A DNA stretch of 42,432 bases. Source: a virus. Lineage: Duplodnaviria; Caudoviricetes. Each line of letters begins with the position of its first letter. The first letter of the stretch is position 1. This document shows, piece by piece, positions 5,511-28,972 of the stretch. The stretch spans positions 1-42,432 of the IMG/VR virus record IMGVR_UViG_3300037743_000150. One strand, given 5' to 3'. The translations under genes were made by a program, and so were the position numbers. The notes under the pieces are model-generated. The model was not told the origin of the DNA and did not search any database. It was given only the letters and a program-made list of their open reading frames with translations.

Positions 5511-6392
5511 ATGGCGGTCCTTACCGCACAGGGGATCAGCAGCGTCGCGATCGAGCTGCTGACCCGCACCCTCGTCCTGCCGATGACGGTGACCCGCATC
5601 CCCGGCGAGGAGTTCGCTGGGGCCAACGGTGACACGATCACCGTGCGGGTCCCGCAGCCGGGCACTGCCCGCGAGCAGACCACCCCCGGCGCCACGATCA
5701 CGTTCGATGACGTCAACGAGATCCCGGTCGACGTCACGCTGGCGCACCTCTACAACGGGAAGCTGATCACCGACGAAGAGGCGAGCCTCCAGCTGGAGGA
5801 CTTCGCCCGTCAGATCACCCGTGTGCAGGTCGCCGCGGTCGCCACCGCCGCCGAGGAGCAGATCTCCGACGTGATGGACGCCCTCACGGCCGACATCACC
5901 GGCGTCACCGCCGCCAGCATCGCCGGCGACGTCCTGACGGCCCGCACAATGCTCGGCAACGCGAACGCCCCGGCGTCGGACCGGTTCCTCGCCGGTGCCC
6001 CGGACTTCATCGAGGTGCTGCTCGGCCTCGAGAACCTGAGCTTCGCCGACGCCGCCGCGTCGGACTCGGCGCTGCGCGAGGCGATCGTGGGCCGCTACCG
6101 CGGGTTCACCGTCGTCGAGTCCAACGGCCTGGAGGCCGGCTCGGCGATCGCCTACCACCGGTCCGGGTTCGTGTGGGGCAACCGGGTCCCAGTCGCCCCC
6201 AAGGGTGCCACCGACTCGGCGTCGACGACCGCCGGCGGTGTCGGGATGCGCAGCATCCTGGACTACATCCCCGAGCGCCTCTCCGAGGCCTCCATCCTGT
6301 CCACGTTCGCTGGCGCTGCTGCGGTGTACGAGGACAACTCGGGCACCGACTCCCAGCGGTTCGTGAAGCTGGAGCTCGAGCCGACGTCGTGA
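5511..6392 (+). CDS. major capsid protein (P22 coat-like family)
   Basis: AAGGAG RBS; GDTITVRVP motif; 293 aa; follows scaffold. Confidence 0.9.
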   Translation: MAVLTAQGISSVAIELLTRTLVLPMTVTRIPGEEFAGANGDTITVRVPQPGTAREQTTPGATITFDDVNEIPVDVTLAHLYNGKLITDEEASLQLEDFARQITRVQVAAVATAAEEQISDVMDALTADITGVTAASIAGDVLTARTMLGNANAPASDRFLAGAPDFIEVLLGLENLSFADAAASDSALREAIVGRYRGFTVVESNGLEAGSAIAYHRSGFVWGNRVPVAPKGATDSASTTAGGVGMRSILDYIPERLSEASILSTFAGAAAVYEDNSGTDSQRFVKLELEPTS

Positions 6393-7045
6393 TCCCGGCG
6401 GTAGCACACCGGGTGTGGTTGGACGACCCACTCCCCGACGAGTTCGCCGGCTACGGCCGGCGGCTCGCCGAGTTGCACGGTGGGTGGGAGGTCAGGGAGT
6501 GGCGGTACACCTCCGACCTCCCGCCCCTGTGCAACCAAGGCCTGTTCGACCGGGCGCAGCAGCTGTGCCCACGGGACTGGAAACGGTTCCAGTCCGATCT
6601 GCTCCGCCTGGAGCTGCTGTGGCTGTACGGCGGGATCTACGTCGACTGTGACGTGGAGCCGCTCCGCCCGTTCGACCCGCTGGTTGCCTGTGAGGCGTTC
6701 GTGGTGTGGTCCCCGAACCGGCATCGTGGCGGCCGGGTCCTGACTCAGGCCGTGATCGGCGCAGCGGCGCAGCATCCGTTCATCGGGGCGTGCATCGCGG
6801 CGGCGGCCGGGTCGGTGGAGCGTTACGGCGGTAAGCCGTTGGCGCAGGTGGTGGGTCCGCACATGGTGCAGCGGGTGTGGGAGTCCAGGGAGTGGCCCGG
6901 GGTGCTGGTCCTGCCGGAGCAGACGTTCGGTCCGCAGTCGATCCGGGACCGTGACGCTGGCCGCCCGGTCGACCTCGATGGCTCCTACGGCTGGCACCAC
7001 TGGGCCAACACCCGGGACCGCCGGCATGGAGGTGTGCCGCAGTGA
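6389..7045 (+). CDS. glycosyltransferase family 32 (DXD sugar-binding)
   Basis: IP..AHRVW, SDLLRLELLWLYGGIYVDCDVEPLRPFD, HPFI, H.W..T motifs; GTG start overlaps capsid stop. Confidence 0.92.
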   Translation: MIPAVAHRVWLDDPLPDEFAGYGRRLAELHGGWEVREWRYTSDLPPLCNQGLFDRAQQLCPRDWKRFQSDLLRLELLWLYGGIYVDCDVEPLRPFDPLVACEAFVVWSPNRHRGGRVLTQAVIGAAAQHPFIGACIAAAAGSVERYGGKPLAQVVGPHMVQRVWESREWPGVLVLPEQTFGPQSIRDRDAGRPVDLDGSYGWHHWANTRDRRHGGVPQ

Positions 7046-7326
7046 AATCGTCCGCCCAACAGGCTGCCGCGCAGAACCGCATCCACGATCTGCTCACCGA
7101 GTTGGCCGACATCGTCGGGCCGAACTTCGACGGTGCGGCAGCAGAAGAACTCGACGTGGACGAGCAGCCGGAAGGGTCCGTGTTCCTCGGCGAGTGGGTG
7201 ATGGTCATGTCGTGGATGGACGAGGCCGGCGAGTCGTTCATGACCCGCATTGGCTCAGCCAACCTGCTGAGCCACCACCGGGTCGGTCTCCTCCATGAGG
7301 GCCTGCACGGGTTCGGCGACCGATGA
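7042..7326 (+). CDS. hypothetical acidic protein
   Basis: GGAGG RBS; start and stop both overlap neighbouring genes. Confidence 0.7.
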   Translation: MKSSAQQAAAQNRIHDLLTELADIVGPNFDGAAAEELDVDEQPEGSVFLGEWVMVMSWMDEAGESFMTRIGSANLLSHHRVGLLHEGLHGFGDR

Positions 7327-8234
7327 CCTACCAGCCGACCGCCACAACGGCCGGGGAGCGGTCCTGTGTCGACCGGTGGGACGTGATCCGCTGGCACCTG
7401 GCCAGTCTCGACGAGCCGTTCACCGTGCTCGACTTGGGCGCCAACGCCGGCTGGTTCTCGACCCGACTGGCCGAGGAGTTCGACTGCCAGGTCACCGCGA
7501 TCGACGATCACCGTGACCTGTCCTCGATCGCCTCGGACCGGGTCACGGTCCTGAACCGGCGGGTGTCGGCCCGTCACCTGCGGGAGATGCCCCGCTTCGA
7601 TGTCGTGCTCGCCCTGTCGGTGCTGCACCACATGGCGGATTGGCGGGCCGTGTTCGACCAGGTGCGGGCCTGTCGCCGCGGAGCGTTCGTCGAGGTGCCT
7701 GCACCTGGCGAGGAGTGGATGCGGTGGGCGGCGGCACGGCATGAGCTGCCAGCGATCCACGACAAGGTTGCCGGTGCGGCGTTCCGCCTGATCGGCGAGT
7801 TCGAGCGCACAGGCCGTGACGGGTCGGTCCATCAGCGGCCGATGTTCCTGGTGCATGGCACGCTCACGACGTTGGCCGGCACTGTGTTCTCCGGGTCCGG
7901 GACCTGCTCCCGCAAGCTCACCCCCACCCTGCACGCCCGCGGCCTCGACCGCGAGCTCGGCTACCAGCCGTACCCCGGGTCCCTCAACCTGCGCTGCGAA
8001 ACGACCGTCGACCTCGGCACCCCCTGGCTGGCGTGGCCTGGTCTGGTCAAGGGCCGGTCCCGCCCCTACTGGTTCTGGCCCGCCTGGCTCAACGGCCACC
8101 CGGTGCACGCCATGGACCCCGCCGGCCGCGGGCACGGGCCCGGCTGCATCGAGGTCGTCGCCCCCCGGTCGATGCGCGACAGCCTCGGGTTGGTCGATGG
8201 CGACGCCGTCACCCTGGAGGTGGCGTGTGGTTGA
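7323..8234 (+). CDS. WbdD-type SAM methyltransferase fused to CTP-dependent riboflavin-kinase-like (DUF120) domain
   Basis: N-half: VLDLGANAGWFS and FDVVLALSVLHH. C-half: GTVFSGSG, LGYQPYPGSLNL, IEVVAP..MRDSLGLVDGDAV. Confidence 0.85.
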   Translation: MTYQPTATTAGERSCVDRWDVIRWHLASLDEPFTVLDLGANAGWFSTRLAEEFDCQVTAIDDHRDLSSIASDRVTVLNRRVSARHLREMPRFDVVLALSVLHHMADWRAVFDQVRACRRGAFVEVPAPGEEWMRWAAARHELPAIHDKVAGAAFRLIGEFERTGRDGSVHQRPMFLVHGTLTTLAGTVFSGSGTCSRKLTPTLHARGLDRELGYQPYPGSLNLRCETTVDLGTPWLAWPGLVKGRSRPYWFWPAWLNGHPVHAMDPAGRGHGPGCIEVVAPRSMRDSLGLVDGDAVTLEVACG

Positions 8235-8946
8235 CCGCCGGAAGCTGAGCGCAGCCGCACGGCGCGCCCGACGTGAACGGGTCCAACGCCGCGCCAACTG
8301 GGCCACACCCACCCAGACCAACCAGGTTCTCACCCTCACCGCTCACGGCCGCAGCATCCGGCTCTACGACGCCCAGGGCAAGATCCCCGCGTGTTGGCGG
8401 GCCGGCGTCCCCTACGAGAAGCCGCTGCTCGACCACATCTATGCCGAGCGGTTCACCGGCCTCGCTGTCGACGCCGGCGCCAACATCGGCAACCACACCC
8501 TGTGGTTCGCCGGAATCTGCGGCCTGGACGTCGCAGCGTTCGAGCCGATCAAGCACACCGAACTCGCCCGCAACGTTGACCTCAACGAGCTCGGCGACAA
8601 GATCACCGTTCATCCGTCCGCTCTCGGGGTCATCGACGGGCAGGCGTTGCACGTCGGGAAGGGCCGCCTCGCAACAGGCAAGGGGACTCTGCCGGTCCGC
8701 GACCTCGACGGCTACGGGCTCACCGATGTCGCTGTCATCAAGGTCGACGTCGAGGGCATGGAACCACAGGTGCTGGCCGGCGCCGAGTACACGATCCGGG
8801 ACCAGCGACCCGTGATCTTCGCCGAGGAGTGGGGCCAGCCGGAGCACGCCGCGATCGCTGCTGTCCTGGAGCCGTGGGGGTACCGGTTGACCCGCCGGTT
8901 CTCCGGCAAAGGGAGCGCTACACCGGTCGGCAGGTGGGATCCGTGA
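8227..8946 (+). CDS. FkbM-family methyltransferase
   Basis: VDAGANIGNHT, AFEP, IKVDVEGMEPQVLAGA, RPVIFAE; GGAGG upstream of GTG 8227. Confidence 0.92.
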   Translation: MVDRRKLSAAARRARRERVQRRANWATPTQTNQVLTLTAHGRSIRLYDAQGKIPACWRAGVPYEKPLLDHIYAERFTGLAVDAGANIGNHTLWFAGICGLDVAAFEPIKHTELARNVDLNELGDKITVHPSALGVIDGQALHVGKGRLATGKGTLPVRDLDGYGLTDVAVIKVDVEGMEPQVLAGAEYTIRDQRPVIFAEEWGQPEHAAIAAVLEPWGYRLTRRFSGKGSATPVGRWDP

Positions 8947-10121
8947 TCCGGGTGGGTGTCGCCGTGATGGCGCACCGCAAGAGGGAGGCGTTCATCCCCG
9001 AGCTGCTCGCGTCGCTGGACCGCCCGGCCGAAGTCGTCTGGGACCAACGTGACGACCGGTGGGATACCGGCCGCCGGTCCATGCTCGCCCACCGCAACGA
9101 CCCCGAAGCCACCCACTGGCTGGTTGTACAGGACGACGCGATCGTGTGCCGGGACCTTGTCGCCGGCATCGAGTCAGCGCTTGCCCATGTGCCGTCCAGG
9201 ACGCCGCTGTGCCTCTACGTCGGCAAACTGACCCCGTTCGCCCCGATGGTCACGGCGCTGGCAGCACAGGCCACGCAGGACGGTGTGTCGTGGCTGTCGA
9301 TGGACAGCATGCATTGGGGTGTCGGGATCGTGATGCCCGTCGAGCTGATCGGCCCGATGGTCCAGTGGGGTGACACGGGCGGCCAGTCGATCCCGAACTA
9401 CGACAAGCGGATCTCCCGGTGGCTCGGCGGCCAGGGGGTCCAGACGTTCTATCCGTGGCCGTCGCTGGTCGATCACCGCGACAGCCCGTCGCTGGTACCT
9501 GGCCGCGGTCGGCGTGGCCGTCACGCTCACCGGTTCCTCGGCGCCGATGTGTCGGCGCTCGACGTCGACTGGTCCGGTGGCGCCATCCATGTCAACGCGC
9601 TGCGCAGCTACAGCGGCGGGCGCCGCCGTTCCCCTGCCTCGAAGGAGAGAAGGCCCATGGCCCCCACCCCTGTGCACTACGTGTCCGGTGACGTGTTCGT
9701 CGCCAAGCAGAACGGCCGCGTCAACCTCGACGGGCGCCCGATGCGGATCATCCGTGGCAGCACGTTCGCTCACGCCTCGTCGTGGATCGTGAAGAACCGC
9801 CCGCAACTGTGGCGGCCGGTGCGTCTCGATTTCCCGCCCTCCGACAACGGTGTGGCGGCCAGCACGCTCGACGTCGAGGCCATGGCCCAGGCGAACCCCA
9901 ACATCGGCCCAGTCATCGACCCCGAGGCGCTCGCCACCGAAGTGGTCGCCAGCGCCGTCGCCGTCGCCACCGCCCCTGATGTCGAGCCGGCCCCGAAGCC
10001 GGCGGCGAAGGACGTGCGGGCGTGGGCCAAGGAGACCGGCGTCGACGTCCCGGCGTCCGGCCCGATCCCTGCCGCCGTGGTCGAGCAGTACCAGGCCGCC
10101 CACGCGGTGACCGAGTGGTGA
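8943..10121 (+). CDS. GT-A glycosyltransferase with in-frame C-terminal extension ending in an Lsr2-like domain
   Basis: VAVMAH, WLVVQDDAI.C, YPWPSLVDH.D.PSL motifs; C-terminus VRAWAKETGVDVPASGPIPAAVVEQY. Confidence 0.8.
   Translation: MIRVGVAVMAHRKREAFIPELLASLDRPAEVVWDQRDDRWDTGRRSMLAHRNDPEATHWLVVQDDAIVCRDLVAGIESALAHVPSRTPLCLYVGKLTPFAPMVTALAAQATQDGVSWLSMDSMHWGVGIVMPVELIGPMVQWGDTGGQSIPNYDKRISRWLGGQGVQTFYPWPSLVDHRDSPSLVPGRGRRGRHAHRFLGADVSALDVDWSGGAIHVNALRSYSGGRRRSPASKERRPMAPTPVHYVSGDVFVAKQNGRVNLDGRPMRIIRGSTFAHASSWIVKNRPQLWRPVRLDFPPSDNGVAASTLDVEAMAQANPNIGPVIDPEALATEVVASAVAVATAPDVEPAPKPAAKDVRAWAKETGVDVPASGPIPAAVVEQYQAAHAVTEW
9657..10121 (+). CDS. probable internally initiated product (small head-module protein plus Lsr2-like domain)
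   Basis: Purine-rich AAGGAGAGAAGG just upstream of in-frame ATG 9657 at an apparent domain boundary. Confidence 0.6.
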   Translation: MAPTPVHYVSGDVFVAKQNGRVNLDGRPMRIIRGSTFAHASSWIVKNRPQLWRPVRLDFPPSDNGVAASTLDVEAMAQANPNIGPVIDPEALATEVVASAVAVATAPDVEPAPKPAAKDVRAWAKETGVDVPASGPIPAAVVEQYQAAHAVTEW

Positions 10122-10125
10122 CCTG

Positions 10126-10551
10126 ATGGCTGGCCTGATCACGGTTGCCGACCTGGCTGCCCGCCCGGGGTTCGAGAACTTGGACTCCGTGCAGGCCCAG
10201 TCGCTGATCGACGACGCCTCCGCCCTGGTCCGGCTGGCCGCGGCCCCGCTGCTCGATGACGTCGAGTCGCCGGACTGCCCGCCGGCTGTGGTGCCGGTGA
10301 TCGTCGCGATGATCCGCCGCGGGTTCTCCAACCCGATGGGCCACCAGTCCGAGAACCTCGGCGACTACTCCTACACCGCAGGCACCGGCGGCGGCGTCGC
10401 CACCCTGTACCTCACCGCCCGGGAACGGAAGCTCGTGCGTCGTGCCGCCGGGAAGCTCGGCGTCGGCACCGTCACCCTGGAAGGCGACCTCCCCGAGCAG
10501 CCCTTCGACGCCTACTACGGCACCGGCACCGAAGGGCTCCTCGGGTCATGA
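10126..10551 (+). CDS. head-to-tail adaptor
   Basis: A..LI.DASALVR, R...NP.G..SE.LGDYSY, LYLT..E motifs. Confidence 0.88.
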   Translation: MAGLITVADLAARPGFENLDSVQAQSLIDDASALVRLAAAPLLDDVESPDCPPAVVPVIVAMIRRGFSNPMGHQSENLGDYSYTAGTGGGVATLYLTARERKLVRRAAGKLGVGTVTLEGDLPEQPFDAYYGTGTEGLLGS

Positions 10552-10898
10552 CGATCGGGCACCTGACGCTCACCTTGCTGACGGTGCACCGGCCCTCGAC
10601 CGTCGCGGACGGCATCGGTGGGACGACAGTCACCTACTCCCAGGTCGGCGAGATCCGGGCCCAGGCCAGTCAGCCCACCACAGAGGAACGGCTCCTGGCG
10701 CAGCAGGCCGAGGCCAACCTCTCCCACGTCTTGCACACCACCGCTGGCGCTGATGTCCGACGAGGTGACGAGCTCGACGGCGACCTGCCGTCCGATGTCC
10801 CCGAGGGCCGCCGGCTGAGGGTCGTCTCCGCGGTAAGCAACAGCCGCAGCACCTACCTCCGCATCGAGTGCGAGACCACCCAGGCCGAGGTGTCCTGA
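10548..10898 (+). CDS. head-to-tail stopper
   Basis: DGIGG, ADVRRGDEL motifs; synteny. Confidence 0.85.
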   Translation: MTIGHLTLTLLTVHRPSTVADGIGGTTVTYSQVGEIRAQASQPTTEERLLAQQAEANLSHVLHTTAGADVRRGDELDGDLPSDVPEGRRLRVVSAVSNSRSTYLRIECETTQAEVS

Positions 10899-11266
10899 TG
10901 GGGTTCAAGGTCAAGATCGACGGCGACATACGCCAGGCGATGGCGGCCAAGGCGGCAGCCATTCACCGGGGCGCCGAGCGGGCGGTCGGCGACGAGGTGA
11001 AGGCGGTAGCGAAGGACATTCGCCGCCGTGCCCCGGTCGGGGACTCCAGCCGTGGCCGGCGAGGGAAACCGCCGCTGGCCGAGTCGGTCGAAGCGACCAG
11101 CAACGGGCTCGACGGGGCGGCCCGGGTGAAGGCCCGGCACGTCAACATCATCGAGCACGGCACCAAGAACCGGCCCGCCCGCCCGATCGTCAGGCCCGCC
11201 GCCGAGACGGCCCGTCGCCGGTTCCCGGGACGGGTTGCCGACGAGATCCGGGAGGCCATCGAATGA
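10898..11266 (+). CDS. HK97 gp10-like neck/tail protein
   Basis: APV...L..S, IEHGTKNRPARP.VRPA motifs. Confidence 0.85.
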   Translation: MGFKVKIDGDIRQAMAAKAAAIHRGAERAVGDEVKAVAKDIRRRAPVGDSSRGRRGKPPLAESVEATSNGLDGAARVKARHVNIIEHGTKNRPARPIVRPAAETARRRFPGRVADEIREAIE

Positions 11267-11703
11267 GCCTGCCCGCCCTTTCGCCAGCGGTACCGCTCCA
11301 GGCCGGCATCTACACCCGGTTGACCACCGACGCCACCCTGATGGCCCTGATCGACGGCGTGTTCGACGGTGTGCCGGAGGATGTCGATGGCGACTACGTC
11401 ACGATCGACGAGAGCATCGAGTCCCCGGACAACGTCCACGGCGGGTTCGGGAGCGTCACCTTGTGGACGCTGCGGATCTGGACGAAAGCCCGAGGGCACC
11501 TCAACGGTCTCCAGATCGAGGCCCGCATCCGGGAGCTGCTCGACCACCAGCACGTCGCGCTCGACGCCCTGGTCGATGGGCACACCGTCGTGATGTGCCA
11601 CTTCGAGCAGCGGGCGGCGCGCGTCGATCCCGAACCGCCGGGCGACACCCGGGACGTGCCGGTGACGTACCGGTTCTCGACGGAGCAAGACCCAACAAGT
11701 TGA
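11263..11703 (+). CDS. tail terminator (DUF3168-like)
   Basis: LQ.GIY.RL..D..L...I.GVFD.VP, YVTI motifs. Confidence 0.85.
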   Translation: MSLPALSPAVPLQAGIYTRLTTDATLMALIDGVFDGVPEDVDGDYVTIDESIESPDNVHGGFGSVTLWTLRIWTKARGHLNGLQIEARIRELLDHQHVALDALVDGHTVVMCHFEQRAARVDPEPPGDTRDVPVTYRFSTEQDPTS

Positions 11704-11745
11704 CCCTGTGGCGGCGACGAGCCGCCCGTCTAAGGAGGTAGCCCA

Positions 11746-12171
11746 TTGGCCGGATTCTCCGCGTTTGGCGCCCAGTTCCAGCGGGGCGATGGTGCCACCC
11801 CGACCGAGGTCTTCACCACGATCGGGGAGGCCACCAACATCACCGGTCCCGGCCTCGACCGGGACGTCATCGACGTGTCGTCGCACGACTCCGTGGACCG
11901 GTTCCGCGAGTACGTTGGCGGCCTGATCGACCCGGGCGAGGTGACGTTCGAGGTCAACTGGGACCCGGCGATCCACGTCTCGCTGGTGGCCGACTTCCAG
12001 GACCCGGAGCCGCGCAACTACATGATCGTGCTCCCGGACCCGCCGGGCGGTGACTGGGCGTTTTCGGCGTTCATCACCGGGATGGGCCACGAGTACCCCC
12101 ACGACGACAAGATGAGCGCGGATTTCACGTTCAAGATCAGCGGCGCTCCGGTGTTCACGGAGGGCTCGTGA
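11746..12171 (+). CDS. major tail (tube) protein
   Basis: AAGGAGG then TTG start; IDVSSHDS, GL.DPGEVTFE.NWDP, FK.SG.P motifs. Confidence 0.92.
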   Translation: MAGFSAFGAQFQRGDGATPTEVFTTIGEATNITGPGLDRDVIDVSSHDSVDRFREYVGGLIDPGEVTFEVNWDPAIHVSLVADFQDPEPRNYMIVLPDPPGGDWAFSAFITGMGHEYPHDDKMSADFTFKISGAPVFTEGS

Positions 12172-12590
12172 CCGCCGCTGCCAAGGACCTGAAGGACCTG
12201 ATCCTCGCCGCGGAGGACATCGACTTCGAGGACATGGACGTCCCCGAGTGGGGTGTCAAGGTGCGGGTGCGGGGCATGTCGGGCACCGACCGGGACAGCT
12301 TCGAGGCGAAGATGGTCGCTGTCCGCAAGGGCGGCGCAGCCGGCCAGGAGGTCGAGCTGCGTCTCGCCGACTTCCGGTCGAAGGTCCTCGTGAAGTGCCT
12401 GGTCGACCCGGAGACCCAGAAGCGGATCTTCGACGACAAGGACGCCCAGCAGTTGGGCCTCAAGTCGGGTGCGGTCATCGACCGGCTGTTCGACGTCGCA
12501 AAGCGGCTGTCGGGCATGGACGAGGCCGCCGAAGAGGACGCCCGGGGAAACTCCGGGACCGGCCCGAGCGCCGGTTCTACCACCGACTGA
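12168..12590 (+). CDS. tail assembly chaperone (G)
   Basis: VPEWG.KVRVRGMSG.DRD motif; between tail tube and tape measure. Confidence 0.9.
   Translation: MTAAAKDLKDLILAAEDIDFEDMDVPEWGVKVRVRGMSGTDRDSFEAKMVAVRKGGAAGQEVELRLADFRSKVLVKCLVDPETQKRIFDDKDAQQLGLKSGAVIDRLFDVAKRLSGMDEAAEEDARGNSGTGPSAGSTTD
12545..12551 (+). other. programmed -1 frameshift slippery site G GGA AAC
   Basis: X XXY YYZ heptamer in the chaperone frame; the -1 frame is open to 12904. Confidence 0.88.
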
Positions 12591-12904
12591 CGTTGGCCCT
12601 CGGCGGCATGACCGTCGAGGAGATGCTCGCGCGCATCAGCTCCCGGGAGCTGACCGAGTGGGCGGTGTACGAGGAAGAGACCGGCCCACTCGACGCCGGC
12701 TACCGGGCCGACGTCCTCGCCGGCGTCGTGTCGGCGACGGTCGCGAACGCGATGAAGGGCAAGAAGGGCAAGCGATTGAAGCCCGCGGACTTCATGCCCG
12801 ACTGGAGCCGCCGCCGCACCAGCTCGCCGAACCAGATGGCGACGATGCTCAAGTCGTTGACCCACCGTTTCGGTGGGTCAATCCGCAAGCGCAGCGAGGG
12901 GTGA
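12551..12904 (+). CDS. tail assembly chaperone GT extension (-1 frame, DUF4035-like)
   Basis: F...L.LALGGMTVEEML.RISSRELTEW..Y....GP motif. Confidence 0.85.
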   Translation, partial: LRDRPERRFYHRLTLALGGMTVEEMLARISSRELTEWAVYEEETGPLDAGYRADVLAGVVSATVANAMKGKKGKRLKPADFMPDWSRRRTSSPNQMATMLKSLTHRFGGSIRKRSEG

Positions 12905-12907
12905 TCC

Positions 12908-15361
12908 ATGGCAACACTGGATGAACTGCTCGTGAAGGTCGGCGCCGATCTCGACGACCTCGAATCCGGCATGGACGCCGGCGTGAAAACGGTCGAGAAG
13001 GCGATGGGCCGGATCGTGGGTGACGCCGACAAGGCGGGCGCCCAGGTTGATCAGGCCGGGGCGAAGGCGGCGAAGGCGTTCGACGGACTCGACGCCAGCG
13101 CAGACAAGGCCGGCATGGCCCTGAAGGGTGTGGGTGCCGATGCGGACAAGGCCGGCGCCCAGGTCGAGGGTGCCGGGAAGGGCGCGGGCGACGGGTTCGT
13201 CCGTGGTGTCATGTCCGGGCTGGCGGGTCTCGACAGCAAGGTGGGTGCTGTCGCTGAGGGTGCGTTCGACAAGCTGAAGGGCCCGGCGCTCGCCGGTGGT
13301 GCTGCGGCTGGGGCCACGTTCATGATGGGCCTCAACGAGGTGTTCAGTCGCGAGGCGGGCACCGACGCCGTAGCGGCCCGGCTGGGTCTTGGCCCCGATG
13401 CTTCGGCGCGGGTCGGTCGGGTCTCGGGCAAGTTGTTCGCCGGGGCCTACGGCGAATCGATGGAAGAGGTCGGCTCCGCGGTCGACGCGGTCATGTCGAC
13501 CCTGCCGGGGATGCTCGGCGCCAGCGATTCCGCGATCGAGAACACGACAGCCAAGGCTCTCGACCTCGCCAACGGGTTCGGGTTCGACGTCGTCCAGTCC
13601 GTGGGCCTGGCCGGCATCTCGATCAGTCACGGCCTCGCCCGCGACAGCGACCACGCCTTCGACCTGATCGTCGCGTCGATGCAGAAGATGCCCGCCAACA
13701 TGAGGGAGGAGCTGTTCCCTGCGATCGAGGAGTACGGCGGGTTCCTGACCGCGATGGGGTTCACCGGCGAAGAGGCCTTCGGTCTGCTGGCCGCCGCCAG
13801 CCACGACGGCATGTTCGCGATCGACAAGACCGGTGACGCCGTCAAGGAGCTGTCGATCCGGGCGACCGACATGTCGACCACCTCGGTGGAGGCGTTCGAG
13901 GCAGCGGGGCTCAACGCCGACAAGATGGCTGCCCGGTTCCTGGCGGGTGGTGACTCGGCCCGGGGCGCGCTGACCGATCTGGTCAACGGTCTGCTCGGCA
14001 TCGAGGACCCGACCGAACGAGCCAACGCGGCCATCAAGCTGTTCGGCACCCCGCTCGAAGACCTGAACGTCACCGAGATCCCGACGTTCCTCCAGTCGCT
14101 GATCGACATGGACGCGTCGCTCGGCGACGTGGGCGGTGCCGCAGAGATGTTCGGCGTGCAGCTCAACGAGAACGCCGCGACGAACATCGAGGCGTTCAAG
14201 CGCAAGACCCTCGGCGGGCTGATCAACTTCATCGGCGAGGAGGCGATCCCGGCCGGCAAGCGCCTCGCTGATACCTACGGCGACGACCTGGGACGGGGCT
14301 TCGCTGCAGCCAAGGGGTTCTTTAAGGACAACGAGAAGGCCCTCACCGGGCTCAAGGTCACGGCTGGGGTGGTGGCCGCGTCGGTGGCCACGCACTACAC
14401 GATCATCGGCGTGAAGGCGACGTGGGCCGCGGTGAGGTCGGTGGCAGCGTCGGTGCGGATGGTGGCGGGCTGGGTCGCCACCGGGGTTAGTGCCGCCGTC
14501 AACGCGGCGATCGTGGTCGGCTCGTGGCTGCTGATCGGCGCGCGGGCGCTCGCCGCCGGGGTCGTGTCGGCTGTGCAGTTCGCGATCCATGTCGCCGGCT
14601 GGATAGCGATGGGTGTGGCGGCCGTCGTGAACGCTGCGCTCATCGCTGCATCGTGGCTGATCGCCATGGGTCCGATGGCCCTGGTTGCCCTCGCGGTGAT
14701 CGGTCTGGCCGCCTTGTTCGTGGTCCACTTCGACACCATCAAGAACGCCGTGCTGGCGGCGTTCAACTGGGTGAAGGAGAACTGGCCGCTGCTGTTGGCG
14801 ATCTTGACCGGGCCGATCGGGCTCGCCGTGCTGGCCATCGTCCGGAACTGGGACACGATCAAGGCCGGTGTCACCGCGGTGAAGGACTGGATCGTGGCCC
14901 GGTTCAACGACGTCATTGGCTTCATCAAGGGCCTGCCCGGAGCGATCGGGCGGGCGGCGTCGGGCATGTGGAACGGGATCTCCGACGCCTTCAAGTCGGT
15001 CATCAACACCATCATCGGCTGGTGGAACAACCTCAAGTTCCCGAAGTTCGATATCCCCAAGGTCCACGTGCCCGGCACCAACATCGACATCGGTGGCGGC
15101 TCGATCGGTGGCTGGAACCTGCCCAACATCCCGACGCTGGCCGAGGGCGGTATCGCCACCGGGCCGACGCTCGCCATGATCGGTGAGGGCCGCTTCGACG
15201 AGGCCGTCGTGCCCCTGCCCCGCGGCTTACGTGACCTCGGCGGGGGCGGGGCCGGCACCACCGTGATCATGAACAACGCCGGCAGCATCATGGCCGAGCG
15301 CGACATCGTCCGGCTCGTGCAGGACGCCATCGACCGCGGCCAGATCAGGGGTGCGGCGTGA
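12908..15361 (+). CDS. tape measure protein
   Basis: 817 aa, Ala/Gly-rich; DK.GDAVKE, A..LFGT..EDL motifs; Trp/Phe-periodic C-half; LAEGGIATGPT..IGE. Confidence 0.95.
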   Translation: MATLDELLVKVGADLDDLESGMDAGVKTVEKAMGRIVGDADKAGAQVDQAGAKAAKAFDGLDASADKAGMALKGVGADADKAGAQVEGAGKGAGDGFVRGVMSGLAGLDSKVGAVAEGAFDKLKGPALAGGAAAGATFMMGLNEVFSREAGTDAVAARLGLGPDASARVGRVSGKLFAGAYGESMEEVGSAVDAVMSTLPGMLGASDSAIENTTAKALDLANGFGFDVVQSVGLAGISISHGLARDSDHAFDLIVASMQKMPANMREELFPAIEEYGGFLTAMGFTGEEAFGLLAAASHDGMFAIDKTGDAVKELSIRATDMSTTSVEAFEAAGLNADKMAARFLAGGDSARGALTDLVNGLLGIEDPTERANAAIKLFGTPLEDLNVTEIPTFLQSLIDMDASLGDVGGAAEMFGVQLNENAATNIEAFKRKTLGGLINFIGEEAIPAGKRLADTYGDDLGRGFAAAKGFFKDNEKALTGLKVTAGVVAASVATHYTIIGVKATWAAVRSVAASVRMVAGWVATGVSAAVNAAIVVGSWLLIGARALAAGVVSAVQFAIHVAGWIAMGVAAVVNAALIAASWLIAMGPMALVALAVIGLAALFVVHFDTIKNAVLAAFNWVKENWPLLLAILTGPIGLAVLAIVRNWDTIKAGVTAVKDWIVARFNDVIGFIKGLPGAIGRAASGMWNGISDAFKSVINTIIGWWNNLKFPKFDIPKVHVPGTNIDIGGGSIGGWNLPNIPTLAEGGIATGPTLAMIGEGRFDEAVVPLPRGLRDLGGGGAGTTVIMNNAGSIMAERDIVRLVQDAIDRGQIRGAA

Positions 15362-15549
15362 GCGGGGAACGGATGACTGACACCGAACGACTCGCCCATG
15401 CGCGGGATGTCGTTGCTGCTGCGCTCACCGCGCAACGTGCCGGGGACCGGGCCGAGGTGAACCAGCTGTTCGCCCACGCGGTGCACGATGGTGTGCCGCC
15501 CACGGAGCTCCTTGCGGAGATCGTTGAGCAGACCGGCGGCACGCTGTGA
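15358..15549 (+). CDS. hypothetical protein
   Basis: GTGA overlaps at both ends. Confidence 0.55.
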   Translation: MSGERMTDTERLAHARDVVAAALTAQRAGDRAEVNQLFAHAVHDGVPPTELLAEIVEQTGGTL

Positions 15550-16457
15550 GCCTCATCGTCCTGAACGCAGGCGAGGCAGCGTTCCTGCAGAACGGCGTCA
15601 CCGGTGTCGCCTACGTGCTGAGGCTCTACAAGGCCGACGTCACCGCCGGGTTGACCCCACCGGAGATCGACGCCCTCGACGAAACCGACTTCACCGAGGC
15701 GACGTTCACCGGCTACTCGGCCGCCGCGGTGTCGACCGGCGGCTGGACGATCACCCAGGGCAACCCGACGAAGGCCGTCAACGTCGAGAAGCAGTTCACG
15801 TCGTCGGCGAACCAGTCGGCGCAGAACATCTGGGGCTACTACGTCACCCGCACCAGCGACGGGGTGGCCATGTGGTTCGAGCAGTACCCGGCACCGGTCG
15901 TGATCGAGGACCTCAATGACCGGATCGACGTCATCCCGACGATGACCTTGGACGATGCGGAGGGCAACGGCTTGGAAGTCGGCGACATCATCCCCACAGC
16001 CCGCGCCACCGCGGCGCCCGGGCGGCTCCTGTGCCAGGGGCAGGCGGTCTCGCGCACCACGTTCGCGGCCCTGTTCGCCGCGATCGGCACTGCCTACGGC
16101 GTGGGCAACGGGTCGACCACGTTCAACGTCCCGAACCTGCAGCAGCGGGTCCCGCTCGGGAAAGCGACCTCCGGCACGGGGGCGACCCTCGGCGACACAG
16201 GCGGCACGATCGACCACGTCCATGCGCTCGACACCTCGTCGTCGTTCGCCAAGGTCACGATCGCCTCAGGCAGCACCGACAACGCCTACTGGGGCCGGAA
16301 GAACGTAAGCCCGAGCTGGAACTCGGTGATCGAGGGCAACGTGGGCAGCGCCGGCGGCACGGTCATCTCCCAGGGTTCCGGTGTCGGGCTCGGCGGCAAC
16401 AGCGACACAGCGAACCCGCCCTTCCAGGTCGTCAACTTCGAGATCGTGGCTTCGTGA
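15546..16457 (+). CDS. minor tail protein with tail-collar domain
   Basis: LLCQGQAVSRTTFAALFAAIGTAYG.GNGSTTFNVPNL and PPFQVVNF motifs. Confidence 0.88.
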   Translation: MSLIVLNAGEAAFLQNGVTGVAYVLRLYKADVTAGLTPPEIDALDETDFTEATFTGYSAAAVSTGGWTITQGNPTKAVNVEKQFTSSANQSAQNIWGYYVTRTSDGVAMWFEQYPAPVVIEDLNDRIDVIPTMTLDDAEGNGLEVGDIIPTARATAAPGRLLCQGQAVSRTTFAALFAAIGTAYGVGNGSTTFNVPNLQQRVPLGKATSGTGATLGDTGGTIDHVHALDTSSSFAKVTIASGSTDNAYWGRKNVSPSWNSVIEGNVGSAGGTVISQGSGVGLGGNSDTANPPFQVVNFEIVAS

Positions 16458-19409: not shown

Positions 19410-20831
19410 GTGACGTTCCCGGCCTTCTCCGTCGGGACCCCGCACTCGTCGGGCACCGGCAGCACGTCGCGCAACGTCGCGTTCGGGGCCACGTTGGCGG
19501 CGGGCGACGGCATGATCCTGCTCGTCGAGTACCGCGACGGGACGGTCACCACCCCGTCGTCGCCGTGGGTGCTGCCGACTGGTGGGTCGGCGGCGCAAAG
19601 CAACTTCACCTTCCGGGCGTTCGTGCTCGTCGCTTCGGGCGGCGAGACGTCGGTGACGTTGACGACGCAGAGCGCCGTCGTGATGATCGCCTACCCGATC
19701 CGGGTGCCAGCGGCATCGTGGGATTCCTCTCAGGCGGTCGAGGTGACGGCGGCTACGGGGACCAACGACCCGGCCAGCGAGACGGCGTCGTGGGGCGCCG
19801 GTGCGGACAACGGCTGGATCGCGACCGTCTTCTCCAACAGCGGCACCACCTACACCGGGTTCCCGACCGGGTTCGCCAACGACCAGCTAGCCGTCAACAG
19901 CGCTTTCGACTCGTTGAACACGGCGATGGCGACGAAGGACGACGCGGTAGCGACACTGGATCCTGCGGCATTCACCCCCGGCGGCGGGTCACGGTCCATC
20001 ACCGCGACCATCGTCGTGCGTGGTTCGGCGGTGGCACCCGCCGAGGAAGATGCCACACCGGGGGCACTGACCCTCAGCCCCGTGGCGGCCACGGGGACGC
20101 CCGGTCCCATGACGGTGAACGCCACACCCGGGACGGCGACCCTCAGTCCTGTAGCGGCGACAGCTACCCCCGGCGCCACAACTGTCAATGCCACAGTCGG
20201 AAGCATCAGTCTCACCGCGGTCGCAGCGACAGCGACCCCTGGGGTCGTCAGCGTCGATGCGACGACAGGCGCCCTCAACCTCGCCCCGGTGGCAGCCACA
20301 GCGACACCAGGACCGATCGCTGTGGCTGCCACCCCCGGTGGCCTGAACGTCGCACCGGTCGCAGCGACAGCCACCCTCGGCCCCGTCTCCATCGACGCGA
20401 CACCCGGGACCCTGACCCTGAGCGCCGTTGAAGCCACCCCCACGCCGGGCAGCCCAGGCACGGTCGACGCGACACCCGGGGCACTGACCATCAGCCCGGT
20501 CGTGGTCGTCCCGACGCCGGGTCCGGTCACCCTCAACGCCACGCCGGGCACGACCACCCTCACCCCGGTAGGGGCGACGCCTACGCCGGGCCCGATGACC
20601 GTGGCTGCCGCCCCGGGGACTCTGAGCCTGCAGCCGGTCGATGTCGTCCCTCAGTCGGCCGGCGACATCATCAACGCCATCCCGGGGGCGCTCACCCTGG
20701 TCGCCGTGCCGTCAACCCCGAGCTTGGGGCCCGTCACCCTGGCAGCGACACCGGGGCTGCTCACGCTGGCACCCGCTGGCACGCCCGAGCTTTCGATCAG
20801 CCGGCGACCCCGCCGCCTCATCTTGACCTGA
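19410..20831 (+). CDS. fibre-like protein: N-terminal beta domain plus Thr/Pro/Ala/Gly 23-aa repeat stalk
   Basis: About 11 repeats of xATPGxLTLxPVxATxTPGPxTV. Confidence 0.7.
   Translation: MTFPAFSVGTPHSSGTGSTSRNVAFGATLAAGDGMILLVEYRDGTVTTPSSPWVLPTGGSAAQSNFTFRAFVLVASGGETSVTLTTQSAVVMIAYPIRVPAASWDSSQAVEVTAATGTNDPASETASWGAGADNGWIATVFSNSGTTYTGFPTGFANDQLAVNSAFDSLNTAMATKDDAVATLDPAAFTPGGGSRSITATIVVRGSAVAPAEEDATPGALTLSPVAATGTPGPMTVNATPGTATLSPVAATATPGATTVNATVGSISLTAVAATATPGVVSVDATTGALNLAPVAATATPGPIAVAATPGGLNVAPVAATATLGPVSIDATPGTLTLSAVEATPTPGSPGTVDATPGALTISPVVVVPTPGPVTLNATPGTTTLTPVGATPTPGPMTVAAAPGTLSLQPVDVVPQSAGDIINAIPGALTLVAVPSTPSLGPVTLAATPGLLTLAPAGTPELSISRRPRRLILT
20049..20790 (+). repeat. degenerate 69-bp (23-aa) coding tandem repeat, ~11 copies
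   Basis: DATPGALTLSPVAATGTPGPMTV / NATPGTATLSPVAATATPGATTV / etc.; one 24-aa unit. Confidence 0.9.
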
Positions 20832-27695: not shown

Positions 27696-28931
27696 TCAGG
27701 CCTCGCCCAGGCCTCGATCCGATCCAACTTCGTCGCCGCCGGCCTGCAGCACCGCGTCCGCAGCGGCCCGGGCCCGGTCGAAGTCATCAACCCACAGGTG
27801 GGCGTAGGTTTGCATGCACTCTTCCGGTGAGTGCCCCAGGATCGCGGCGGTCGCCACCACCGACAGGCCCCGGGCGATCAGCAGCGAAGCGAAGTAGTGC
27901 CGGATGTCGTGCAGCGTGAAGTACCGGCCGATCGCCGGGTCACGTTCCCCGCGGTCCTCGCCCGGGTCGGGCCGGCCCGGATCGGATGCGAGGCGTTTGC
28001 GGGTCGCTTTCTCCCACGCATCGTCCACGGTCTGGCGGGCGACCGGCCGCCCGGTCGAGGTCGTGAACACGAGGCCGGGCCCGGTCGGGGGGAACTCGGC
28101 GACCTGAGCCGACAGCACCCCCAGCACGAAATCGCCGACCGGCACCACCCGGTTCGAGCGCCCACTCTTCGGGTCCACCAGGAACAGGCCGTCCCCCAAC
28201 GACACCGCTGTCTCGCCCTTCGGCATCTTGCCGTGGCGGTCGAGGTGCGCCTGCAGTCTCGGGCGGCGCTGCAACTGCCGGTCGACCCGGATCTGCTTGG
28301 TGAGGAAGTCGATGCGGTCCAGGGTCAGCCCGAACAGCTCGCCCTGGCGGAGCCCGGTCCCCGCCAGCGTCGGCACGCAGCGCCGGTAGTAGGTAGGGAG
28401 CCGCGGGTGCACGAGCTCCAAAGCCTCGAGGCCGGGGATCGTGATCTTCTTGCTGACTTTCGGCAGGTTGATCCGGTCGGTGCACGGGGACTCGGGGATC
28501 AGCTTCTCGTCCACGGCGGCGTAGGTGAAGATCATGCCGGCGAGCCGGTAGATGGACTCGACGGTCGCCGGGGCGAGCCCCTTGTTGGCCAGCGACGTCA
28601 CCCAGTTCTGCACCCGGGTGTGCCCGATGGCCCGCAGCTGCAGGTCCTGGAAGGCGGGCAGGATGTGGTTGCGGAGGTCGCCCTCATATTTGGCGAGGGT
28701 CGATTCGCGTACGTGTACCTGCCCGGCCATGTACCGCTTCGCGACATCCCCGAACAGGGTTTTGGCGCCCCTCGGGTCGATCCATGTTCCGCGCACTGCC
28801 TGGCCGCGCTGCTCGTCGAGCCAGTCGTTGGCGTCGCCTTTGCGGTCGAACGTCTCGGAGGTCTCCCGGCCGCCGGGTGGCGTGAACCGTGCCCGGTACC
28901 GCCCGTTCCTGGACTCCACGAATCCCGCCAC
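27696..28931 (-). CDS. int: tyrosine integrase
   Basis: TGLRQGEL, PKS, HDIRHYFAS, LGH, TYAHL catalytic set; N-terminal arm-binding and SAM-like domains. Confidence 0.96.
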   Translation of the reverse strand: MAGFVESRNGRYRARFTPPGGRETSETFDRKGDANDWLDEQRGQAVRGTWIDPRGAKTLFGDVAKRYMAGQVHVRESTLAKYEGDLRNHILPAFQDLQLRAIGHTRVQNWVTSLANKGLAPATVESIYRLAGMIFTYAAVDEKLIPESPCTDRINLPKVSKKITIPGLEALELVHPRLPTYYRRCVPTLAGTGLRQGELFGLTLDRIDFLTKQIRVDRQLQRRPRLQAHLDRHGKMPKGETAVSLGDGLFLVDPKSGRSNRVVPVGDFVLGVLSAQVAEFPPTGPGLVFTTSTGRPVARQTVDDAWEKATRKRLASDPGRPDPGEDRGERDPAIGRYFTLHDIRHYFASLLIARGLSVVATAAILGHSPEECMQTYAHLWVDDFDRARAAADAVLQAGGDEVGSDRGLGEA

Positions 28932-28972
28932 CCCGCACACAGTGCGCTCAGTGCGGGCCGGGCGTCAACCCC

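Follow-up and report, generated by a model that had tools for sequence, protein, structure and literature searches.

Results

A methyltransferase joined to a RibK-fold domain

The DNA analysed here (the window) is an entire virus record of 42,432 bases, IMG/VR record IMGVR_UViG_3300037743_000150, with a GC content of ~69%. Shortly after its major capsid gene lies a 303-residue open reading frame that joins a methyltransferase related to WbdD of E. coli O9a to a domain with the fold of RibK, the archaeal cytidine triphosphate (CTP)-dependent riboflavin kinase. Its residues, relatives and gene neighbours suggest that it is probably a bifunctional kinase/phosphate-methyltransferase that adds methyl-phosphate to a virion glycan made by the phage, probably using CTP. 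The gene and its two domains are as follows.

7323..8234, + strand: two-domain open reading frame of 303 amino acids, WbdD-type methyltransferase plus RibK-fold kinase-like domain (ATG start; from Pfam, PDB matches and a model)
7323..7859, + strand: methyltransferase domain, residues 1-179
7860..8231, + strand: RibK/DUF120 cradle-loop-barrel domain, residues 180-303

An earlier, sequence-only reading had described this frame at 7323-8234, and all the motifs it quoted are present in the translation. Pfam detects a class I methyltransferase at residues 28-128 (E 6e-9) and CTP-dep_RFKase (PF01982) at residues 188-300 (E 1.6e-11; 44.7 bits, cut-off 25). The domain boundary falls at residues 179/180 (nucleotide ~7860), where the profile-profile match to fusions of the same methyltransferase with a protein-kinase-like domain stops (residues 1-179, E 2e-52). 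An AlphaFold2 model of the whole protein, built from 44 homologues, has a mean predicted local distance difference test score (pLDDT) of 91.6 and a predicted template modelling score (pTM) of 0.89; when it was searched with Foldseek, RbkR and MJ0056 ranked first and WbdD was among the top methyltransferases.

The fusion is a genuine gene. Both domains are spanned by 44 of 55 protein matches (query included), the 43 relatives being 35-86% identical to the query; GC content at third codon positions (GC3) is 0.87 in the first half and 0.94 in the second; and the ratio of nonsynonymous to synonymous substitution rates (dN/dS) is 0.18-0.43 in either half when compared with four relatives. Two-domain homologues, GC3 and dN/dS together rule out an assembly or frame artefact, a frameshift or a chimera, and the same three lines of evidence rule out a 519-residue minus-strand frame (6780-8339) that overlaps the fusion gene.

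A WbdD-like methyltransferase domain

That the N-terminal domain is nearer to WbdD than to generic methyltransferases, as had been proposed, is borne out by sequence, profile and fold, all of which rank WbdD top. With the single sequence, phmmer returned WbdD as the best PDB match (E 5e-5, the next at 5e-4), and with a family profile WbdD was the best methyltransferase in the PDB (8e-9, the next natural methyltransferase at 8e-6). VIA-align of residues 3-180 also placed WbdD (4azs) first, with a Z of 16.9 and a root-mean-square deviation (rmsd) of 2.5 over 168 aligned residues. The WbdD motifs given in the earlier reading agree with the PDB sequence.

In the alignments, Y3, H102, H103 and R172 correspond to WbdD Y16, H132, H133 and R203, and R13, C15 and R18 to WbdD R31, C33 and R36. 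Across 93 RibK-partnered methyltransferase domains below 75% identity (de-duplication left 231 of 302 domains overall), Y3 is kept in 85, H102 in all 93, H103 in 88, R172 in 83, and R13 and R18 in 91 each. According to the available text of the WbdD study, methyl transfer to phospho-mannobiose is lost in H132A, H133A, R203A and Y16F; R203, H132 and H133 encircle the methyl group as a phosphate site; R31 and R36 line an anion pocket; and the closest generic methyltransferases do not conserve R203 (PMC3482155). The same text describes a substrate that is a cell-surface polymer and methylation only of phosphate on a disaccharide, free sugar phosphates not being accepted (PMC3482155). Because WbdD's phosphate-methylation residues are kept, the acceptor of the phage methyltransferase is probably a phosphate monoester, and a kinase would be needed.

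A RibK-like domain with a predicted change of acceptor site

The C-terminal domain models as a RibK barrel, as the sequence-only reading had proposed: Foldseek and VIA-align place it with RbkR and MJ0056, the latter aligning with residues 178-303 at a Z of 16.4 and an rmsd of 2.0 over 126 residues (2vbv). Profiles of the protein-kinase type had no match to the query's C-terminal domain.

We compared 105 fusion-family RibK domains (of 131 collected) with 118 archaeal-type domains (of 120 listed, stand-alone or helix-turn-helix-fused). The query motifs GSLN (219-222), E277 and MRDSL (284-288) correspond to the GTLN motif, catalytic Glu and LRxxxL cytidine loop of RibK. Among the glycines, G191 is found in 105/105 fusion-family and 118/118 archaeal-type domains, G193 in 101/105 and 116/118, and G219 in 104/105 and 118/118. 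At the metal site, S/T220 (105/105 and 118/118) and N222 (103/105 and 118/118) are retained, as are the catalytic E277 (102/105 and 114/118), L284 (99/105 and 112/118; Met in the query) and R285 (102/105 and 116/118). The GxGEG phosphate loop reads GSGTC in the query, and the pattern GxG[EK][GA] fits 2/105 fusion-family domains against 87/118 archaeal-type ones.

The flavin site has changed as well. K198, H204 and S246 of the query replace the RibK flavin aromatics Y109, Y115 and F165 (taRbkR numbering). Position 198 is aromatic in 12/105 fusion-family against 113/118 archaeal-type domains, position 204 is Tyr in 18/105 against 88/118, and position 246 is aromatic in at most 5/105 against 89/118. 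Newly conserved in the 105 fusion-family domains are R247 (53), Y249 (76), W252 (81), H262 (84) and R269 (65). By these residues the domain appears to be a kinase with a retained donor site and a changed acceptor site.

As set out in the available sections of the taRbkR study, the motifs SGMGEGR, YxGTLN and KYLR build the CTP site, Glu195 probably acts as base, and flavin mononucleotide (FMN) is contacted by Y109, Y115, F165, P185, Y190 and E195 (PMC5397151). The positions retained in the phage family are those of this CTP site and base. In the portion available of a second study, the LRxxxL loop recognises cytosine through backbone contacts, MmpRibK uses CTP only and MjRibK mostly CTP (bioRxiv 2021.04.15.440061). 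Because this loop is present in the phage domain, CTP is the predicted donor.

The C-terminal domain could instead be a true riboflavin kinase with an auxiliary metabolic function, its fusion to a methyltransferase being incidental. Such a reading would suit a PF01982 score above the Pfam cut-off, the RibK fold and catalytic residues, the 'riboflavin kinase' label that some databases give to homologues, and the Tyr115 column, which is aromatic in 41/105 fused domains. However, the domain lies far under the NCBIfam equivalog cut-off (NF040694, 32.4 bits against 168), three flavin-contact aromatics are replaced in the query, and the family branches apart from archaeal RibK: in a FastTree tree the 105 fusion domains group with 5 short stand-alone proteins, opposite 113 archaeal-type domains (support 0.72). 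Bacteria use an ATP-type (adenosine triphosphate) riboflavin kinase, and Streptomyces aidingensis, the one named lysogen, has its own ATP-type flavokinase. PF01982 matched only the 4 archaea among 14 control genomes, and no flavin enzymes were found among the annotated neighbours of RibK-type loci. We therefore consider a riboflavin kinase very unlikely.

Grouping with the fusion family are four short DUF120 proteins that stand alone (P0199, P0218, P0222 and P0243), in which Gly replaces the catalytic Glu.

Two kinase types alternate on one methyltransferase family

Homologue searches yielded 55 proteins and 681 cluster representatives at E <=0.001, 150 of the 681 being listed. Among 196 distinct proteins, 90 are RibK-fused (86 methyltransferase-RibK, 3 in reverse order and 1 with two RibK domains), 48 pair the methyltransferase with a protein-kinase-like domain (46, plus 2 in reverse order), 54 have the methyltransferase only and 4 RibK only; none of the 196 has both kinase types. 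The same division is seen at the level of loci. We examined 144 sequences (143 loci, which are redundant and related, and the window), 140 of which had a match and 139 a methyltransferase. Of these 139, 33 have the RibK type only and 64 the protein-kinase type only (49 fused, 15 as separate frames), 1 has both, and 41 have neither; short contigs or distant matches account for many of these 41. The kinase partner switches at least 4 times on the methyltransferase tree, which is unrooted and has weak deep support. The kinase swap that the sequence-only reading had envisaged shows up as two kinase types that alternate, almost never together, on one methyltransferase family.

The alternative domain carries an HxDxxPWN...ID pattern, in which D, N and the second D are each present in 33/34, and aligns weakly with the catalytic loop of WbdD; it also has scattered APH matches and a PHROG 'kinase' match. 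In a fold search with a model of a protein-kinase-type fusion, the methyltransferase half dominated the matches (WbdD Z 16.8, next 13.4).

Cultured mycobacteriophages have the protein-kinase type in split form: 45 records match the N-terminal domain, and kinase, methyltransferase and glycosyltransferases stand in a row. Thibault encodes a kinase (gp12), a methyltransferase (gp13) and glycosyltransferases (gp14-16) between capsid and head-tail adaptor, and Tweety gp102-104 is a second cultured example. In both, a gene annotated as a 'Ser/Thr kinase' lies directly before the methyltransferase (Thibault gp12-13, L001 4510-5531; Tweety gp102-103, L002 3492-4537). These 'Ser/Thr kinase' genes may be glycan kinases.

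Some fusions carry a GT2 or FkbM domain in addition, and fusions of 500-770 residues occur among the homologues. One 768-residue protein, encoded right after a capsid gene (L130, 6779-9085), comprises the methyltransferase, a tandem pair of RibK-like domains and a GT2 domain. No fused forms of 607-2000 residues were found among 7,990 candidates scored with the family alignment, which is weak evidence.

These counts also bear on whether the two halves act together. The domains could be independent, or the barrel a binding or otherwise non-catalytic module, with phosphate coming from another source; an altered GxGEG loop that so rarely fits the archaeal pattern would agree with this, as would the 41 loci that have no kinase partner and the one (L061) that has a second kinase. 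Yet at least 97% of the 105 domains retain the catalytic Glu, the metal ligands and the LR motif, and the fusion is found in both domain orders and takes a kinase's place. We regard uncoupled or non-catalytic domains as improbable.

A probable glycosylation cassette next to the capsid gene

The genes around the fusion are listed here.

Left part of the window: terminase, portal, scaffold, capsid and tail genes and an amidase (Pfam)
5511..6392, + strand: major capsid protein, ending in Ser, candidate glycan acceptor (Pfam, comparison)
6389..7045, + strand: GT32-type glycosyltransferase (PF04488); start codon inferred, 4-nucleotide overlap with the capsid stop
7042..7326, + strand: 94-residue open reading frame with no family match, missing at the same position in a close relative (L003)
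8227..8946, + strand: FkbM-family methyltransferase (PF05050; TIGR01444, 68.6 bits against a cut-off of 37.7); start codon inferred
8943..10121, + strand: glycosyltransferase, homologue of Che8 gp110, with a C-terminal Lsr2 DNA-binding domain (PF23359); start codon inferred
10126..12171, + strand: head-tail and tail-tube genes, with a C-terminal Ser in the presumed adaptor, head-closure, tail-completion and tail-tube proteins
27696-28940: integrase

The fusion is gene 3 of 5 overlapping genes that run from the capsid gene to the head-tail adaptor (GT32, 94-residue frame, fusion, FkbM, gp110-type), and this cassette is tied to the capsid gene by overlaps of 4-8 nucleotides within the late operon. 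The gp110-type protein matches Che8 gp110 (32% over 136 residues, E 4e-15) and phrog_854 (E 2.5e-32); in the accessible text of PMC12363180, Che8 gp110 is named essential for capsid glycosylation. A Pro/Ala-rich linker joins this type of glycosyltransferase to the Lsr2 domain both in the window (8943-10121) and at a second locus (L004, 8440-9768). Weak Pfam matches of the TcdA/TcdB glycosyltransferase domain to GT32 genes, and of RIP to the portal, were put down to fold overlap or chance.

The integrase gene makes this a temperate phage. The identity of its capsid protein to those of cultured phages does not exceed 37%, and because the top cultured matches are all actinophages, the host is probably actinobacterial. 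The minor tail region includes a 473-residue open reading frame (19410-20831) with many ATPG-type Thr/Pro/Ala repeats and no Pfam match.

The predicted co-occurrence of this architecture with glycosyltransferases holds across relatives. Of the non-redundant RibK-type loci with more than 2.5 kb on each side, 20/20 have a glycosyltransferase at most 2.5 kb away, as counted with profiles seeded from these same loci (the seeds verified by Pfam and PHROG). GT32 is present in 17/20, and a capsid or portal gene lies at most 7.5 kb away in 14/20. RibK-type loci include a prophage of S. aidingensis, a contig of a Bacilli metagenome-assembled genome (MAG) and contigs of 32-38% GC. At the protein-kinase-type loci, Pfam and PHROG found glycan genes in 8/12. 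The profiles seeded from RibK-type loci matched 0/16 protein-kinase-type loci, which is explained by their seeding from the other class. Two protein-kinase-type fusions of ~390 residues on low-GC contigs (L082 and L093) stand beside purine-synthesis (PurQ/PurL-like) and flavoprotein genes rather than glycan genes, the neighbour scan of this pair covering L082.

The fusion gene is optional. A relative whose capsid is 93% identical (L145) has GT2, GT32 and gp110-type genes (6022-8431) without the fusion or FkbM, and L003 is without the 94-residue frame and the FkbM region. On near-identical phage backbones, then, single genes of the cassette come and go.

Might the capped glycan lie elsewhere than on the virion, for example in a host surface polymer that a prophage changes to block superinfection? 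The phage is temperate, 6/20 loci have no capsid or portal gene within 7.5 kb, and WbdD itself works on a cell-surface polymer. On the other hand, the cassette is coupled to the capsid gene in the late operon and includes the Che8 gp110 homologue, and Pfam finds neither membrane nor export genes in the window's cassette. We judge a non-virion target to be quite unlikely. An enzyme of a DNA or nucleotide modification pathway seems to us extremely improbable: the adjoining glycosyltransferase does have an Lsr2 DNA-binding domain, and methyltransferase-only relatives lie beside ParB-like and PAPS-reductase-like genes (PAPS, 3'-phosphoadenosine-5'-phosphosulfate), but the gene sits in a morphogenesis operon, its neighbours are of the GT32, GT2 and gp110 types and not DNA glycosyltransferases, and no nucleotide-modification genes were found beside RibK-type fusions.

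C-terminal serines as candidate acceptors

A C-terminal Ser is found in 6/24 window proteins listed, and all six are virion proteins: capsid, presumed adaptor, head-closure, tail-completion, tail-tube and collar (5511-16457). The listed non-virion proteins do not end in Ser. Freeman et al. reportedly described, in 2023, glycan attachment at the C termini of capsid and tail tube, and candidate glycosylation acceptors here extend beyond those two proteins. In the parts available, PMC11256854 and PMC12691614 both cite Freeman 2023 on mycobacteriophage virion glycosylation, the primary source that PMC12363180 cites too. Among capsid relatives, 11/13 with a nearby glycosyltransferase and 11/27 without one end in Ser (Fisher p 0.016, kinship ignored; 24 more loci were too short to class), an enrichment that gives modest support.

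The two-step chemistry could also stand unchanged with an acceptor other than a virion glycan sugar, such as the hydroxyl of a Ser or Thr in a protein, a free polyol, or a precursor sugar nucleotide that a glycosyltransferase would pass on. RibK's own acceptor is the hydroxyl of a small open-chain polyol, several virion proteins offer a C-terminal Ser, and the acceptor cannot be read directly from the residues. Against this, WbdD methylates phosphate carried by a disaccharide but not free sugar phosphates, and glycosyltransferases accompany all 20 loci and are sometimes fused to the enzyme. An acceptor other than a virion glycan sugar is rather unlikely.

Distribution in databases and literature

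RibK-like domains did not emerge from cultured phages: the window's domain gave one chance match (E 0.6, a tape measure) against 50,697 records, and two stand-alone RibK-like domains gave none, with tblastn being insensitive at RibK-domain distances. No PHROG family matched any of 9 RibK-like domains tested, and no such domain is among the 50 BFVD matches listed. Plasmids yielded only two haloarchaeal RibKs and one unrelated methyltransferase. The available text of Sullivan 2010 (Table 2, PMC3037559) lists 'DUF120' without function in 5 cyanophage genomes; PF01982 matched 0/4 of the cyanophages searched (P-SSM2, S-SSM7, S-SM2 and P-SSM4), which leaves that label unconfirmed. In the literature available to us, neither the fusion nor any non-flavin substrate of the RibK fold was found described; subscription papers and supplements, those of Freeman 2023 among them, may list kinase genes in such cassettes.

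Discussion

The most economical account of this gene, and the one that we think probable, is a kinase and a phosphate methyltransferase acting in turn on a phage-made virion glycan. As we picture it, the gp110-like enzyme would prime virion proteins, probably at C-terminal serines, and GT32 would extend the glycan. The barrel would then move the nucleotide gamma-phosphate to a sugar or polyol hydroxyl, with Mg held at S220/N222 and E277 serving as base in the manner of RibK, the acceptor hydroxyl sitting in a remodelled pocket formed by the family residues R247, Y249, W252, H262 and R269. Finally, the strictly conserved residues Y3, H102, H103 and R172 would place the phosphate for methyl transfer from S-adenosylmethionine (SAM), yielding a methyl-phosphate diester. 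As RibK attacks a primary hydroxyl, the cap may be on sugar O6 and not on O3 as in WbdD. Because the gene is optional and lacks a coiled coil, the product is likelier to serve as a decoration, or simply as a stop group, than to set a measured chain length; without a coiled coil, 'capping' need not imply chain-length control.

The enzyme is neither WbdD nor a canonical RibK. It shares with WbdD (PDB 4AZS, 4AZW and 4UW0) a homologous N-terminal methyltransferase with its four essential residues and anion-pocket arginines, an arrangement in which the methyltransferase is followed directly by a kinase-type domain, and a context of glycan synthesis; its predicted action is likely to resemble WbdD capping. 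Unlike WbdD, it has a RibK barrel in place of the protein-kinase fold, ends with the last barrel strand (residues 295-301) where WbdD has a C-terminal coiled coil, and is encoded in a phage late operon, not an O-antigen locus. With archaeal RibK (MJ0056, 2VBV) and the kinase domain of RbkR (5TRD) it shares the fold, the G-S/T-L-N motif, the catalytic Glu and the LRxxxL loop. It differs in its GSGTC loop, in K198, H204 and S246, in the new residues R247, Y249, W252, H262 and R269, in its methyltransferase fusion and residence in phage cassettes, and in forming a separate tree branch; the loop, the flavin site and the equivalog cut-off all set it apart from the canonical enzyme.

The closest parallels among phages are the glycosylation genes of mycobacteriophages. 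Che8 (gp108-110), Corndog and Myrna likewise have a gp110-type glycosyltransferase with further glycosyltransferases and methyltransferases, and capsid and tail tube as likely acceptors. However, Che8 gp108-110 had no match to the methyltransferase profile or to either kinase profile, and in the parts of the literature available to us phosphate or methyl-phosphate was not found described on phage glycans. Thibault gp12/gp13 and Tweety gp102/gp103 belong to the same methyltransferase family (32% identity, E 4e-14 to 1e-17) and adjoin glycosyltransferases, those of Thibault lying between capsid and head-tail adaptor, but there the partner is a separate protein-kinase-like gene annotated as a Ser/Thr kinase.

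Several observations weigh against this account. First, the structural lead of WbdD is small (VIA-align Z 16.9 against 15.7 for TehB, the best other methyltransferase), and the deep branches of both the RibK-domain and methyltransferase trees are weakly supported (0.72-0.81). Second, C, A, N or H takes the place of the third Gly of GxGEG, a polyphosphate-binding residue in RibK, and given this change nucleotide binding may differ from that of RibK. Third, the flavin site appears from its residues to be altered rather than erased: the 'absolutely conserved' flavin Tyr (position 204) is still aromatic in those 41 fused domains, P266 (RibK P185) is kept, and H271 (in the column of RibK Y190) is common to 56/118 archaeal domains. 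Fourth, the protein-kinase-like label of the alternative domain comes from motifs and family matches, the match to the WbdD kinase being weak (independent E-value 2.9), and one phage contig of a Bacilli MAG (L061, 6914-9612) has a RibK-type fusion together with a separate protein-kinase-like gene. Fifth, the methyltransferase family is not restricted to glycan loci. At 4/12 protein-kinase-type loci there is no glycan gene among the neighbours scanned, and at L027 (5712-8118) and L034 (5676-8058) the methyltransferase stands alone between PAPS-reductase/DUF3440 and ParB-like genes; these two represent a second use of the family, and no kinase was detected at either. Finally, the glycosyltransferase profiles were drawn from the loci on which they were counted, and a C-terminal Ser is common even in capsids without a nearby glycosyltransferase (the 11/27 above).

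Extending the argument to the whole family is more tentative. It is possible, though here we lean slightly towards doubt, that the phage branch of the RibK barrel is a CTP-driven glycan kinase that has repeatedly been swapped with a WbdD-type protein-kinase-like domain, and that many phages of Actinomycetota, Bacilli and low-GC hosts end their virion glycans with methyl-phosphate.

There is also a trap for annotation. Databases automatically label homologues as DUF120 or riboflavin kinase, and such labels could put these genes among those of vitamin metabolism. If our reading is right, this would be a small (303 residues), soluble enzyme that is easy to assay.

If true, these predictions would give the RibK kinase family its first non-flavin substrate and phage particles their first phosphodiester-capped glycan, to our knowledge. 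A family so far tied only to archaeal FMN synthesis would gain a new substrate class, and methyl-phosphate capping of glycans a second, unrelated enzymatic route. In cluster J and F mycobacteriophages, the genes annotated 'Ser/Thr kinase' would be re-read as likely glycan kinases. Finally, phage virion glycans could be phosphorylated and thus charged, which would bear on the encounters of phages with antibodies, host glycans and glycosidases.

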